This document shows, piece after piece, positions 11,986 to 35,063 of a stretch of DNA of 64,000 nt (the first letter of the stretch is position 1; every line of letters begins with the position of its first letter). The notes under the pieces were generated by a model. That model searched no databases. It had not been told where the DNA came from and saw only the letters and a list, made by a program, of their open reading frames with translations. Origin of the DNA: an uncultured Verrucomicrobiae bacterium. GTDB taxonomy: Bacteria > Chlamydiota > Chlamydiia > Chlamydiales > Rhabdochlamydiaceae. The DNA is taken from positions 1,600,001 through 1,664,000 of the forward strand of contig OY970364.1 of the NCBI GenBank assembly GCA_963718565.1, read 5' to 3'. Made by a program: the position numbers and the translations under genes.

Positions 11986-12148
11986 AAATGACCTCCTCGT
12001 GGCTGCGAAGACACGAGAAGGTCCGGGGAACCTTCGTAAGTGGCAAAGCAGGTGAACGAAGAGCGAACCGGGGCCGAAGGCAGCCGCCGCCAAGGCGACA
12101 GGTGTCAAAAGCGCGATTTTATACCGCGAGGAGTCTTGCAATTCCCTC
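11986..12148. repeat. Family D right end carrying the shared hairpin module F
   Basis: Ends TTGCAATTCCCTC; 12084-12148 matches the reverse complement of 21394-21460; 12002-12072 matches 33135-33200. Confidence 0.8.
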
Positions 12149-17584: not shown

Positions 17585-17680
17585 AACTATCCTTAGAGTC
17601 AGCCCACAAACCTGTTACTAGACTTGTGGACTCACCCTTACGACCTGGCCTCTTTTTACAATTTTTTTTTACAACTGTCT

Positions 17681-18853
17681 ATGAAAAAGTCGGAATCTAA
17701 AGAAGACATCTCTGCAATTGATCGCCTTCATCCAGTGAAATCGGTCATTAAAGAACGTTATCCCCTCACTAAACCTGGATCGACAAAGAACACCTATCAT
17801 GTTTCTCTGGATTTCCATGATGCGCCCATTCGATTTAAAGTAGGCGACTCCATTGGGATCTATCCTCAAAATGACCCGCACCTTGTTCAACATTTGATTG
17901 GAGCGATGAAAGCACGTGGCAGCGAACGTATTCATGACCCGCGTAGCGGAACAGACATGACGTTATGGGATTTCCTAAGTTTCAAAGCCAATCTTTCTCG
18001 GCTCAACAGTTCTTTTCTTAAACTCTTCTATGAGCGCGAGACGCTGCACGACAAAAAAAACCATCTCCATCGCCTTTTGCAGCAAGAGAATAAATCCCTC
18101 CTTTTACAATACTTAAACACGCACGACCCTCTCGATCTTTTTAAAGAGTACAGTAATATCCAAGCTCCGCTTCAAGAAGTCTGTACACAATTTGGGCCCT
18201 TGCTTCCCCGTTTTTATTCTGTCGCCTCATCACAGCTTGTTTTTAAAAATGAAGTGCATCTCACAGTAGCCCTTTTCAGTTTTTCTCATCAGGGAGAACA
18301 GCGCTATGGCGTTGGAAGTCATTTTCTCTGCCATCTTGCTGCCATCAAAGACACTGAAGTTCCCATCTACGTCCAACCTGCCCACTATTTCACTTTGCCC
18401 CCCGATGACGATGCGCCGATCATCATGATAGGCCCGGGAACAGGCGTTGCCCCTTATCGCGCATTCATGCAGGAAAGATCAGCCAAAAGAGCGCAAGGAA
18501 AAAACTGGCTCTTTTTTGGCGAGCGCAATTGTAAGACGGACTATTTTTATGAAGAAGACTGGACGCGATGGATAGCAGAAGGGAAATTAAGAGTAGACCT
18601 CGCTTTTTCTCGAGATCAACCCGATAAAATTTATGTTCAACACAGAATGCATGAAAATGCTAAAGAAATTTGGGCATGGCTGGAAGAAGGAGCATATTTT
18701 TATGTCTGCGGAGATGCCCATCGCATGGCAAAAGATGTCGAGACGATGTTGCAGCAAATCGCCCAAGAGCAGGGGGGCATGAGCGAAGAAGCCGCAAAAG
18801 CCTATGTCAAAAATCTTCGATTACAGAAACGTTACCTTGCTGATGTTTATTAA
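17681..18853 (+). CDS. cysJ: Sulfite reductase flavoprotein-like FAD/NADPH oxidoreductase lacking the flavodoxin domain
   Basis: RFYSVAS, GPGTGVAPYR, YVCGDA and C-terminal DVY. Confidence 0.85.
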   Translation: MKKSESKEDISAIDRLHPVKSVIKERYPLTKPGSTKNTYHVSLDFHDAPIRFKVGDSIGIYPQNDPHLVQHLIGAMKARGSERIHDPRSGTDMTLWDFLSFKANLSRLNSSFLKLFYERETLHDKKNHLHRLLQQENKSLLLQYLNTHDPLDLFKEYSNIQAPLQEVCTQFGPLLPRFYSVASSQLVFKNEVHLTVALFSFSHQGEQRYGVGSHFLCHLAAIKDTEVPIYVQPAHYFTLPPDDDAPIIMIGPGTGVAPYRAFMQERSAKRAQGKNWLFFGERNCKTDYFYEEDWTRWIAEGKLRVDLAFSRDQPDKIYVQHRMHENAKEIWAWLEEGAYFYVCGDAHRMAKDVETMLQQIAQEQGGMSEEAAKAYVKNLRLQKRYLADVY

Positions 18854-18864
18854 TCCAAGTTGCT

Positions 18865-18968
18865 AATCGATCACCCTTGAAATTCGCTTGGAGGCGAATT
18901 TCAAGGGTGATCGATTGGGCAAGGCCGCAGCCAGTCTAAATTCACAAAACCTGACGGAGCGCGGTATA
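18865..18968. repeat. 23-bp perfect hairpin fused to the right end of family G
   Basis: Arms 18865-18887 and 18894-18916; 18909-18968 matches 33204-33263. Confidence 0.85.
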
Positions 18969-32261: not shown

Positions 32262-33008
32262 ATGGCAGCGATTGAAATCTCGGAAACGCTTAAAGATGAA
32301 TTGCTTAAATTTTTAAAAAAAAGCAAAAAAGCAGATCTCATCACAACCTATCTCTTTTTTTTGGAAAAAAAATTTAATATCGACCCCGTCCTCTTCATTC
32401 GTGATAAAATGATTTTTCAAAGCGAGGACGAGTTAGTAGACAAGTTAGAGTCTCAGGGAAAGCTTTGGCGCGAGACAGAGATTAAGATCCAATACGGACA
32501 ACAAAGTGTCAATGAGCAAACAAAAAAAGTGTATATCTGTCCATTTACCGGCAAAGTTTTTGGCGACAATACTCACCCCAATCCGCAAGATGCCATTTAC
32601 GATTGGGTGTCAAAATGTCCAGAAAACAAGGAGCGTGTCGGAGGACTGAAGGCCAAGCGTTTTTTTGTCTCTGAAGATCTTGAAGTGATCAAAAACTACA
32701 TCGTCAAACGCAAAGAGCCAATCACAAAGATTGTTTATTCCTCTGCAGTTACAGGAAAACTATTCAACAGCAAGGAAGCCGTCCTCGACGATTTTGTCAA
32801 AAATCAACTGAAGCCAATTCCTTTAGAAGAAGTTCCTAATCAAAATCGTTTCCAAATCGAAGAAACCTTTCTCGCCTTCATTCAAAAACAGCTTGAAGAA
32901 GGTAAAATCAATTCATTTGTAGAATCTTTATCACAATACGATGAATTCTCATCCTACATCGATCAGTGGCTGGAGGAGGTCAAAGAAGAGTCTGAAGATG
33001 AAGGGTAA
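32262..33008 (+). CDS. Conserved chlamydial hypothetical protein (DUF2709-like)
   Basis: YICPFTGKVF..N..PNPQDAIYDWVS.CPEN; position upstream of tsaE. Confidence 0.7.
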   Translation: MAAIEISETLKDELLKFLKKSKKADLITTYLFFLEKKFNIDPVLFIRDKMIFQSEDELVDKLESQGKLWRETEIKIQYGQQSVNEQTKKVYICPFTGKVFGDNTHPNPQDAIYDWVSKCPENKERVGGLKAKRFFVSEDLEVIKNYIVKRKEPITKIVYSSAVTGKLFNSKEAVLDDFVKNQLKPIPLEEVPNQNRFQIEETFLAFIQKQLEEGKINSFVESLSQYDEFSSYIDQWLEEVKEESEDEG

Positions 33009-33032
33009 ACCTTTGGCCGTCTTTTTCAAGAT

Positions 33033-33683
33033 ATGTTATACCGCGCGCAGGAAGGTTTTGTGAATTTGGACTCAGCGAGGCAAAGCACAATCGAAGCTTG
33101 CGGTCCGAATGACGAAGCCATAGTGAAAACTATGGCTGCGGAGACACGAGAAGGTCTAGTAGACCTTCGCAGTGCAGAGCAGGTGAACGAAGCGAACGGG
33201 GAGGATCGATTGGGCAAAGCCGCAGCCAGTCCAAATTCACAAAACCTGACGGAGCGCGGTATATTTGCTAAACATACCACACACTCCCCCGAAGAAACTC
33301 ATCGTTTAGGAAAAGCCTTTGGCCAATCCCTAACTTCCGGTTCCATCATTGCTTTCTTTGGAGACCTCGGTGCAGGTAAAACGACTTTTATTCGCGGTCT
33401 TGTCGATGGGATCGGCTCAGTCGATATGAGAAACGTGTGCAGCCCAACGTTCACTCTCTTGAATATCTACAATGGGGACAAAATGGTATTTCATTTCGAT
33501 CTTTATCGACTCCCTAGAGAAGAAGAATTTTTTGCCGCTGGATTTGATGAATATTTTAAAGCTGGGGGCATTTGTTGCTTGGAATGGGCTGAAAAAATTA
33601 CCTCCTCGCTCCCTACTCATACTTTCAAGGTCATTTTTTCTCACCTCGGAGAAAAAACAAGACAAATTGAGATTTTAAAATGA
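33033..33683 (+). CDS. tsaE: tRNA threonylcarbamoyladenosine biosynthesis ATPase with a 75-aa repeat-encoded N-terminal insert
   Basis: GDLGAGKT, SPTF, HFDLYRL and EW motifs. Confidence 0.92.
   Translation: MLYRAQEGFVNLDSARQSTIEACGPNDEAIVKTMAAETREGLVDLRSAEQVNEANGEDRLGKAAASPNSQNLTERGIFAKHTTHSPEETHRLGKAFGQSLTSGSIIAFFGDLGAGKTTFIRGLVDGIGSVDMRNVCSPTFTLLNIYNGDKMVFHFDLYRLPREEEFFAAGFDEYFKAGGICCLEWAEKITSSLPTHTFKVIFSHLGEKTRQIEILK
33039..33261. mobile_element. Family G palindromic MITE inserted in frame in tsaE, TA TSD
   Basis: TACCGCGC..AGGTTTTGTGAATTTGGACT / AGTCCAAATTCACAAAACCT..GCGCGGTA ends; TA at 33037-33038 and 33262-33263; partial copy at 18909-18968. Confidence 0.92.
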
Positions 33684-34327
33684 AAAAAAAAGCTGCATTT
33701 ACCCAAGCGCAATTTATCGCCTCGGCATATTCACAGGATTGTTTTCCCAAAATAGTCACCCCCTCTGGCCATCTGATGCCGGAAATTGCCGTTGTAGGTC
33801 GCTCGAATGTCGGAAAATCTTCCTTAATTAATCATCTTCTTAAGAGCAAGCTAGCAAAAACTTCATCCGCTCCTGGCAAGACGCGATCGATTAATTTTTT
33901 CTCTGTCGATGAGCAGTTTGTCCTTGTCGACCTCCCTGGTTATGGTTACGCTAAGGCGCCCAAACAAGTCAAAGCCCAATGGGTGGATATCATTGATCAC
34001 TATTTGCAAAACCGCTCCACATTGCAATTGATCTTGTTCTTGCTCGATTCCCGACGCCAACCCTCAGAAGAGGACCTCGCTTTTGTCCAATGGGCATCGT
34101 TTCATCAAAAGTCTCAGCTCATCATTTTTACTAAAACAGACAAGACGAGCGAAATGGAAAAAAAGAAAAATACCTTGGCCGCATTGGATTCCCTAAAAAA
34201 AATTCAAAATTCAGCTTGCCCATGCTTTCTTCATTACTCAATTAAAGATCCGCACGCTAGAATAGAACTTATCCACAAAATTAATAATCTGTTATCTAAA
34301 GAGCGAGTTCAAAATGGGCCTAATTAA
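33680..34327 (+). CDS. engB: Ribosome biogenesis GTPase YihA/EngB
   Basis: GRSNVGKS, DLPGYG and TKTD. Confidence 0.95.
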   Translation: MKKKAAFTQAQFIASAYSQDCFPKIVTPSGHLMPEIAVVGRSNVGKSSLINHLLKSKLAKTSSAPGKTRSINFFSVDEQFVLVDLPGYGYAKAPKQVKAQWVDIIDHYLQNRSTLQLILFLLDSRRQPSEEDLAFVQWASFHQKSQLIIFTKTDKTSEMEKKKNTLAALDSLKKIQNSACPCFLHYSIKDPHARIELIHKINNLLSKERVQNGPN

Positions 34328-35063
34328 CAAAGATGTGTTCGTCTGTTTAGACTGCGAAACTACCGGGCTCGAAACCGATAAAGATCGCATTATCGAAATC
34401 GCGATGGTGCGATTTGACTTCGATCAAACAGTGGAATCGTTTGAAACGCTGATCGATCCTCAGATGCCTATTCCAGAAGTTTCCATTGCCATTCACCATA
34501 TCAATGATATCATGGTGAAAGGGAAACCGAAAATTCAGGAAATTCTTCCAAAGGTTTTTGAGTTTGTTGGGAAATCCATCCTTGTAGGGCATGGCATCCC
34601 TAACGATATCGCTTTTCTCTGCGCCGCTGCAAAACAACATCAGATCCCTTGCAAGCTCGCTTCGCATCCCTATTTGGACACTTTGCGGTTGGCCCGACTT
34701 TATGGCGAAAGCCCCATCAATTCTTTAGAAAAACTTCGCCAGCACTTCAACATTGCCGAAGAGGGAGCTCATCGCGCAATGAATGATGTGGTCGTGAACA
34801 TCGAAGTCTTCAAATATCTTGCCCGACGCTATAAAACGACAGAGCAAATCGTCAATCGACTTAAAAGCCCGATTCAGCTTAAAGCGATGCCTCTTGGAAA
34901 ACATAAGGGGCGTTTCTTTTCTGAAATTCCAGTGGAGTATTTACGCTGGGCTGTCAACCAGAACTTCGATCAAGATCTACTTTTCTCTTTGAAAACGGAA
35001 TTAAAAAAACGCAATAAAGGAATCCAATTCGGACAAGCAGCAAGTCCCTTTGCAAATCTTTAA
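34314..35063 (+). CDS. dnaQ: DEDDh exonuclease (DNA Pol III epsilon-like) with C-terminal MPLGKHKG domain
   Basis: DCETTG, HRAMND and MPLGKHKG. Confidence 0.85.
   Translation: MGLINKDVFVCLDCETTGLETDKDRIIEIAMVRFDFDQTVESFETLIDPQMPIPEVSIAIHHINDIMVKGKPKIQEILPKVFEFVGKSILVGHGIPNDIAFLCAAAKQHQIPCKLASHPYLDTLRLARLYGESPINSLEKLRQHFNIAEEGAHRAMNDVVVNIEVFKYLARRYKTTEQIVNRLKSPIQLKAMPLGKHKGRFFSEIPVEYLRWAVNQNFDQDLLFSLKTELKKRNKGIQFGQAASPFANL

Follow-up and report, generated by a model that had tools for sequence, protein, structure and literature searches.

A MITE-like palindromic element inserted in frame at codon 2 of tsaE in a member of the Rhabdochlamydiaceae

The tsaE gene and its insert

The DNA analyzed here, called the window throughout, is a stretch of 64,000 nt (positions 1,600,001 to 1,664,000 of the forward strand of contig OY970364.1, assembly GCA_963718565.1) from an uncultured bacterium assigned to the Rhabdochlamydiaceae; coordinates are positions in this window unless a genome position is stated. 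Its + strand carries at 33033..33683 a reading frame for the tRNA-modification gene tsaE with 216 codons and a stop, in which 75 inserted codons separate the first 2 ancestral codons from the remaining 139. The gene starts ATG TTA, and positions 2 and 3 of this Leu codon 2 form the left copy of a duplicated target TA (33037..33038). A 223-bp element (TACCGCG...CGCGGTA; 33039..33261, + strand) follows with TAC CGC GCG, and its single stop-free + frame reads YRAQEGFVNLDSARQSTIEACGPNDEAIVKTMAAETREGLVDLRSAEQVNEANGEDRLGKAAASPNSQNLTERG. At the right end (GAG CGC GGT A / TA TTT GCT AAA CAT) comes the second TA copy (33262..33263), behind which ancestral codons 3–141 and the stop (33264..33683, + strand) start with FAKHTTHSPEET and encode an intact TsaE domain. 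Element and one TA together make 225 nt, or 75 codons with zero stops, as an earlier note on this DNA had described from the letters alone, and the in-frame insertion of 75 codons in tsaE is confirmed.

In the 216-aa open reading frame (ORF), Pfam finds only TsaE (PF02367), which matches at full length (E 7e-37, aa 84–212, profile positions 2–128 of 128) and outside the element; the element itself has no transposase gene in its 223 bp. The core holds the P-loop motif GDLGAGKTT, and all 25 invariant columns of a 24-sequence alignment, A2, are kept in the window protein. A2 combines this protein with the tsaE products of 23 of 29 relatives and leaves out L033 and L036, where no canonical start was found, as well as L041, L054, L057 and L059, where the choice of start was confined to GTG or TTG. 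The 75 element residues face gaps in A2 and are carried by none of the 23 aligned orthologs; the insert is equally missing from all 29 tsaE loci of the relatives, where some long upstream frames are out-of-gene read-through of the neighboring gene. A search of a collection of 5.8 billion proteins returned 1742 homologs at E<=1e-20, and among the best 120 of these 1742 the N-terminal 75 residues are covered only by the window's own entry (P0001). The other 119, of about 120–205 aa, cover 51–75% of the query.

The closest homologs among these 120 are 84–87% identical to the window protein and 144–157 aa long. P0004 and P0006 begin MLFTKHTT.S..ETH, P0003 contains the same motif and P0009 begins MLFAKYTT. 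The window encodes ML 5' of the element and FAKHTTHSPEETH 3' of it; across the right junction the peptide runs out of the element into FAKHTTHSPEETHR. When the element is excised in silico and one TA is left in place, the gene regains the N-terminus seen in the homologs, MLF(T/A)KHTT.SPEETH. Since the closest homologs match the excised reading, the reconstruction of the empty site is right and the element targeted the TA within Leu codon 2; the proposal that excision gives back a normal 141-aa TsaE is thus matched by the MLF(T/A)KHTT start of real proteins.

Two of the loci left out of A2 have peculiarities of their own. In L033, the tsaE locus of genome G013, the region at ~1470–1510 reads GTG TTT ACT CAA CAT followed by a stop, with the conserved SAEETH in another frame, the result of a frameshift or of an erroneous indel in the assembly. 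L036, from genome G006, contains no ATG, GTG or TTG at ~1455–1500 between the upstream stop and the conserved TTHSADETH, and its tsaE may start at CTG or ATA.

A single-contig genome rich in near-identical repeats is one in which a long-read metagenome assembly could misplace a repeat copy, and the insertion in tsaE might be such an artefact. Four soil-metagenome DNA runs of one study, with the locus at 2–4x and available as contigs, bear on this question. Short-read contigs of 151 nt (32985–33135) and 194 nt (33231–33424) bridge the two junctions with 0 differences to the window, although these runs may derive from the assembly's own source sample, and we consider an artefact very improbable. 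The only joints seen in these runs (33142>33201) belong to a shorter, 168-nt form of other copies, and no contig skips the whole element, a result that at 2–4x is uninformative on rare empty alleles or on RNA.

Structure and copies of the element

The inverted arms of the element (33037–33107 and 33193–33263) are 71 nt long and 73% complementary. Their outer 35 nt form the terminal inverted repeats (TIRs), the left one (33038..33072, element positions 1–35) matching the reverse complement of positions 191–225, i.e. the right one (33228..33262), at 89%. The RNA is predicted to fold as one long hairpin with a minimum free energy of -110.7 kcal/mol, against an average of -66.9 +/- 4.8 kcal/mol in 200 dinucleotide shuffles, none of which folds as well (z -9.12). 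The G+C content is 53.8% in the element versus 43.6% in the genome. Two of the six element frames are stop-free, namely the one read in tsaE (+1) and one on the opposite strand (-0); the +0 frame has one stop and the +2 frame seven.

BLAST of the element against the genome gave 161 high-scoring segment pairs in 88 clusters, and 18 of 20 family copies have TA at either end, findings that together make this a repeat family beyond chance. Its members have ends of the TACCGCGCGCAGG type and come in three nested size forms with >90% identity, of 225 nt (~8 copies), 168 nt (9 copies) and ~91 nt (4 copies); the 168-nt form lacks 33143–33200 (58 nt) and has a single A in place. A cousin family of ~170 nt at ~82% identity is also found in the genome. 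One copy, at genome position 762023, differs from that in tsaE at 3 of 225 positions (99% identical), hence the insertion in tsaE is recent. Movement of the family is also visible in an orthologous spacer that contains a 222-bp copy in one sister species (L200:3008-3236) and none in the other (L065:1030-1060), with flanks 94% identical; this empty spacer is approximate, as the two species show small sequence differences right at the site. With its TIRs, its TA duplication and its lack of a transposase gene, the element is a MITE (miniature inverted-repeat transposable element).

The exact in-frame geometry and the strong hairpin are also the sole support for another idea, raised by the earlier note, that the element is removed from the RNA or skipped in translation (by splicing, an intein or ribosomal bypass) to give a 141-aa TsaE. 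Known ribosomal bypasses span ~50 nt, not 225, and matching take-off and landing codons are not seen in the sequence. Rfam yields no match at E<=1 over 32800–33500, intron families included, Pfam detects no intein or Hint domain, and among the contigs of the four DNA runs, as said, none joins across the element. The presence of the same element in spacers, with target duplication, points to a DNA transposon. The bypass and intein readings were rejected on sequence, Pfam and Rfam, and we give removal in general hardly any credence.

As regards the enzyme that moved the element, the genome contains an IS630-family insertion sequence (IS; DDE_3, ~360-aa ORF) of 1126 bp in 15 copies that are 99.9% identical and have TA duplications, none of them in the window. 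One copy lies at G000:C1:864074-865199, and two adjoin MITE copies at ~2.254–2.261 Mb. Its ends (TACTATTC.../TACTCTAG...) have only TA-TAC in common with those of the MITE, and this resident IS was rejected as the parent. Pairs of TIRs within 4 kb are of MITE size, apart from two larger spans made by neighboring copies, and none flanks a transposase. From the TA duplication, our guess is that the mobilizing enzyme would be of the IS630/Tc1-mariner type.

The center of the element has a history of its own. A central module (33133..33201) recurs in ~25 copies elsewhere inside a second MITE family of ~260 nt, and as a unit of 57–70 nt it is common to the 225-nt form and about one third of the second-family copies. 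The second family has the ends GGAATTGCAAAACTCCTCGCC.../...GGCGAGGAGTTTTCCAATTTCC and gives ~80–130 BLAST matches on its arms; it occurs at 12000–12072 in the window, at G000:C1:2058330-2058600 and in ~100 other places. Several of its copies lie just 5' of long ORFs and extend them spuriously, and in one case the real ATG and a signal peptide are found 3' of the element.

Right end, TA and flank of the element in tsaE also create a promoter-like TTCACA-18-TATATT (33236–33265, 10 of 12 matches) pointing into the gene. The TTCACA is present in all copies, and the flank determines the -10 box; in a promoter and terminator scan, such a promoter is not above chance (2 sites found vs 2.8 expected in shuffles).

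Copies of the element in other genes

The family includes an open variant (...GGACTCAGCGAGG...; 225 or 168 nt), which keeps the reading frame, and a broken variant (...GGACTAGAGCGAGG...; 169, 227 or 228 nt), in which an extra base leads to TAG in that frame. Open-variant copies of 225 or 168 nt lie in long ORFs in 6 of 10 cases and broken ones in 0 of 9 (Fisher one-sided p 0.008); three of the nine broken copies are short forms, and one short-form copy near the end of an unsupported 142-aa ORF was counted as not in a gene. All six open copies inside ORFs are read in one and the same frame, (L/I)YRAQEGFVNLDSARQSTIEA...EDRLGKAAASPNSQNLTERGI.

The proteins that carry the peptide in this genome are unrelated to each other. 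In an FtsX-like permease the insert occupies aa 386–461 of 761, in a DUF455 protein aa 208–264 of 314, in a TolC-like OEP protein aa 23–79 of 480, after a signal-peptide-like start, and in a TPS-domain protein aa 475–531 of 537. Further hosts are a 328-aa protein with three paralogs in the genome and a 602-aa PTP/NADAR protein, where a diverged copy (73% identity) stands between the halves of the tyrosine-phosphatase domain. Relatives have these proteins without the insert. The permease is matched in 18 of 18 genomes of the genus and none covers residues 386–461 at the orthologous locus; the flanking matches adjoin in 13 genomes for DUF455, and so do the two halves of PTP/NADAR in nine, while orthologous OEP frames of 422–474 aa match from residues 72–79 on. 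Old in-frame insertions common to sister species were not seen among the loci compared in two species. The suggestion that palindromic DNA enters genes in frame here, in the manner known from Rickettsia, thus gains support from same-frame copies in genes whose orthologs lack them.

Reading through the element

The genome (2.284 Mb, one contig) has a single tsaE match, so that the second intact copy that would have made this one expendable was not found. tsaE was detected in 39 of the 41 genomes of the order, and the two that lack a match are 74% and 56% complete. TsaD, TsaB and TsaC/Sua5 are each present in the window's genome. All four genes of the neighborhood are on the + strand. Upstream, a 248-aa DUF2709-family gene (32262..33008; PF10915, E 3.3e-121) ends with a TAA stop 24 nt 5' of the tsaE ATG. 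Downstream, the ATG of a gene for an EngB/YsxC-like GTPase (33680..34327; MMR_HSR1, E 4e-23) overlaps the tsaE stop as ATGA (33680–33683), which suggests translational coupling, and this gene overlaps by 14 nt (34314–34327) with one for an RNase T/DnaQ-like exonuclease (34314..35063; PF00929, E 5.9e-35), the last in the apparent operon. The DUF2709 gene, tsaE, the engB-like gene and the exonuclease gene look like one operon.

Three of the start codons available to the interrupted gene lie within the element. The earlier note was right that no in-frame ATG or GTG exists from the end of the element to the P-loop (between 33264 and GDLGAGKT there is no TTG either), and it overlooked the starts in the element itself. 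These are, on the + strand, a GTG at 33060..33062, which follows AGGAAGG and was chosen in the public gene call (P0001, 207 aa), an ATG at 33132..33134, which would give 183 aa, and a TTG at 33210..33212, which follows GGGGAGGA and would give 157 aa with a 17-residue tail, the shortest from a canonical start. As no canonical start lies between the element and the P-loop, any canonical start yields at least 17 element-derived residues.

Initiation in the element, with a tail of 67, 43 or 17 residues and with the hairpin opened or cut by RNase III, would fit the Shine-Dalgarno (SD)-like AGGAAGG 4 nt 5' of the GTG, the GGGGAGGA 4–5 nt 5' of the TTG, the public gene call and the lack of an SD at the ancestral ATG. 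The predicted energy needed to open each start region (-12..+13) points the other way, the in-element starts being buried in the hairpin at 12.3 (GTG), 11.7 (ATG) and 12.4 kcal/mol (TTG), compared with 5.3 kcal/mol at ATG 33033. For reference, the values are 4.6 kcal/mol at the engB-like start and 9.1 kcal/mol at an ATA at the right junction. The in-silico empty site requires 5.5 kcal/mol, and accessibility of the start region is hence unchanged by the insert. The tsaE orthologs likewise lack an SD and start 3–30 nt past the upstream gene, indicating that SD-less or coupled initiation is ancestral and untouched by the insert. Initiation at ATG 33033 is favored by the combination of the most accessible start and the SD-less starts of the orthologs, and we infer that the ancestral ATG is most likely used and the element translated through. 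In our view a start within the element is unlikely, yet a serious contender.

A second alternative is that tsaE has been inactivated or crippled and that its open frame is a coincidence, with TsaB, TsaD and TsaC alone sustaining the synthesis of N6-threonylcarbamoyladenosine (t6A) at low turnover, or with the lineage on its way out. Single-turnover t6A synthesis can do without TsaE in vitro and in some bacteria, and slightly deleterious insertions can become fixed in intracellular bacteria, whose populations are small. The insertion is, moreover, very recent, so that decay is not yet expected, and a stable hairpin adjoins the start codon. Against this stand the near-universal presence of tsaE in the order together with the lack of another copy here, and the equal accessibility of the start region with and without the insert. 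In addition, the restriction of in-gene copies to the stop-free frame (6/10 vs 0/9) argues for purifying selection on read-through, and the internal copies in the FtsX-like permease and in DUF455, which cannot be bypassed by another start, have left these genes open. Inactivation thus appears to us distinctly improbable.

We therefore favor, with a probability of roughly two in three, a recent jump of the MITE into codon 2 of tsaE followed by read-through from the ancestral ATG, giving a 216-aa TsaE with a tolerated tail. Under this hypothesis, a non-autonomous, TA-duplicating MITE of 223 bp would have entered the TA of codon 2 in the only tsaE of the genome, where its stop-free frame and the added 225 nt would keep the gene open. 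Translation from ATG 33033 through the 75 element codons would yield a TsaE with unchanged core and an N-terminal tail that is probably acidic, hydrophilic and largely unstructured, a tolerated piece of baggage rather than a new domain. The open frame would also let ribosomes reach the overlapping start of the engB-like gene. Across the lineage, in-gene copies would persist only in the stop-free frame, and the same peptide of 56–100 residues would in this way have gathered in many unrelated proteins. The model computed with AlphaFold2 from alignment A2 predicts the TsaE core confidently (pLDDT 87–97) and the tail as disordered (pLDDT 38–66, with two short helices), and the inserted peptide may be compatible with the TsaE fold. 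The 76-residue element peptide has an isoelectric point of 4.55 and a grand average of hydropathy of -0.64.

Several observations weigh against this hypothesis. First, ATG 33033 has no obvious SD, of which both the AGGAAGG-GTG and the GGGGAGGA-TTG have one, and the public gene caller picks GTG 33060. Second, the hairpin begins 6 nt past the ATG and could lower initiation, attract RNase III and cause some termination. Third, at 3 differences in 225 nt from its nearest copy, the insertion is too young for an inactivated gene to show decay. Fourth, among the copies of the IS630-family IS and the TIR pairs within 4 kb there is no autonomous element whose ends match. Fifth, codon-position bias is absent in 17 in-gene copies, which have 31, 26 and 32 variable sites at the three positions of 56 codons. 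This even variation means that conservation acts at the DNA level and that the peptide looks tolerated rather than selected; the idea of the peptide as a selected domain was dropped for this reason. Finally, some of the N-terminal in-frame cases in the relatives described below may be upstream insertions merged with an ORF by chance, a caution that comes from the second MITE family with its real ATG and signal peptide 3' of the element.

Distribution in the Chlamydiae

Within the genus, 15 of the 18 further genomes contain DNA of the element; the other genera of the family have it in 3 of 6 genomes and the remaining families of the order in 0 of 16. At E<=1e-6 the peptide was found in 3 of 61 sampled genomes of the family, all three in this genus. 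A distant blastn search of a plasmid collection gave no match to the element. A scan with a peptide pattern of one genome for each of 185,579 species returned 72 loci, in a set biased towards intact peptides by the nature of the search. The loci are labeled Chlamydiae, Rhabdochlamydiaceae, Candidatus Rhabdochlamydia, Candidatus Acheromyda, Verrucomicrobia(e) or as metagenome-assembled genomes of unnamed bacteria, and none of the 72 belongs to Rickettsia. The peptide lies in an open frame that runs for at least 60 aa on one side at 31 of them, with at least 40 aa on both sides at eight, and 14 have a stop inside the match.

Host families could be named for 9 of 11 and 17 of 24 proteins in two Pfam sets. 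They comprise PriA, RNase R, Mur ligase, LpxK, SpoU methylase, P-type ATPase, GreA, a TilS-like protein and DnaX, together with E1 dehydrogenase, transaldolase, glycogen synthase, formyltransferase and a MiaB-like enzyme. In the Mur ligase the element occupies aa 2–101, directly after the Met, as in tsaE.

Copies of the 168-nt form in genome G013 (e.g. L064:1437-1607 and L118:2049-2219) are 96–99% identical to those of the window's genome (G000), whereas TsaE and the FtsX-like permease of the two genomes are only 74–85% identical as proteins; G013 is 64% complete. Near-identical copies next to diverged proteins suggest recent horizontal spread, or a very strong constraint on the element. We put forward, as a possibility that falls short of being probable, that this lineage of Rhabdochlamydiaceae harbors a MITE family shaped for life in genes, with lengths of 75 or 56 codons, a stop-free frame, frame-safe exchange of modules and recent horizontal spread, the last implied by a copy identity of 98–99% between species that share ~75–85% at the protein level.

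Comparison with other repeat families

Correia elements of Neisseria (CREE/NEMIS) and other MITEs of the IS630/Tc1-mariner kind have TA duplications, long inverted arms and hairpin RNA. The family described here is like them in its size variants by internal deletion and in the promoter-like boxes formed by its ends and the TA (in tsaE the one given above). Correia elements lie for the most part between genes, where they affect transcription and the processing of RNA, and they are not known for coding-compatible insertion. The ends of the element in tsaE also differ from those of the resident IS630-family IS in all but TA-TAC.

The closest parallel in behavior is with the Rickettsia palindromic elements (RPEs), short palindromic repeats found in frame in unrelated genes, which the available part of a review presents as an extreme case (PMC10969869). 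Both are palindromes of ~100–250 bp in obligate intracellular hosts, with many in-frame copies in housekeeping genes that stay open and one conserved hydrophilic peptide per family. The differences are that the present family occurs in Chlamydiae and is apparently unrelated in sequence, the peptide-pattern scan having returned no locus in Rickettsia, and that it has clear TIRs and a TA duplication, comes in three nested size forms and can exchange its central modules. The RPE way of working, a palindrome in frame in unrelated genes with one conserved peptide, is what the chlamydial sequences display. Likened to RPE by description, they seem to form a new RPE-like family in a new phylum.

QMITE1/2 of Coxiella burnetii are sometimes in frame and add residues, as in the C-terminal extension of enhC, and in the available part of the source the cases are few and mostly concern hypothetical proteins or gene ends (PMC5896051); here, by contrast, codon 2 of a conserved tRNA-modification gene is involved, along with many conserved enzymes across the genus. 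Intragenic ERIC and BOX elements are also named as comparable (PMC10969869, available part). The same review of 2024 calls a similar mechanism in other prokaryotes only 'conceivable' and does not mention Chlamydiae (PMC10969869). The literature searched, subscription-only papers aside, does not describe in-frame MITEs or palindromic elements for the Chlamydiae, and the available parts of two Rhabdochlamydia genome papers mention transposases and no MITEs (PMC9723776, PMC9997750).

Coding palindromes have so far been treated as a peculiarity of Rickettsia, and the same behavior is now seen in a second phylum of obligate intracellular bacteria, one in which the transposon anatomy is clearer, with TIRs, TA duplication and empty sites in sister species. 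The system may serve as a test case for the tolerance of essential proteins to selfish insertions, for one-frame filtering in gene-dense genomes and for the seeding of protein segments. If the peptides are indeed translated, the elements would keep supplying essential enzymes with new protein sequence, and the coding-palindrome lifestyle would have had a second, independent origin.

There are also practical consequences. Gene callers set starts inside the element, which makes the annotation of these genomes inconsistent, and alignments based on homology can be misled by the element peptide. An alignment with element-only rows (A1) was discarded when MAFFT placed the N-termini of TsaE orthologs on the element. 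The cause was a chance resemblance between the element peptide EDRLGKAAAS and the TsaE helix ETHRLGKAFG, which sufficed to mislead MAFFT in A1.

Other repeats in the window

The earlier note had also placed a member of the same family in intergenic DNA at 18909–18968. Family and intergenic position are both right, ~55 nt past the ORF at 17624–18853; the sequence is, however, no whole copy but a solo right-arm fragment (18909..18968, + strand) of 59–60 nt, 97% identical to element positions 167–225. Between the stop of this ORF and the fragment, at 18856–18905, lies a perfect 16-bp hairpin (CACCCTTGAAATTCGC / GCGAATTTCAAGGGTG), which may act as a terminator or belong to another variant of the repeat.

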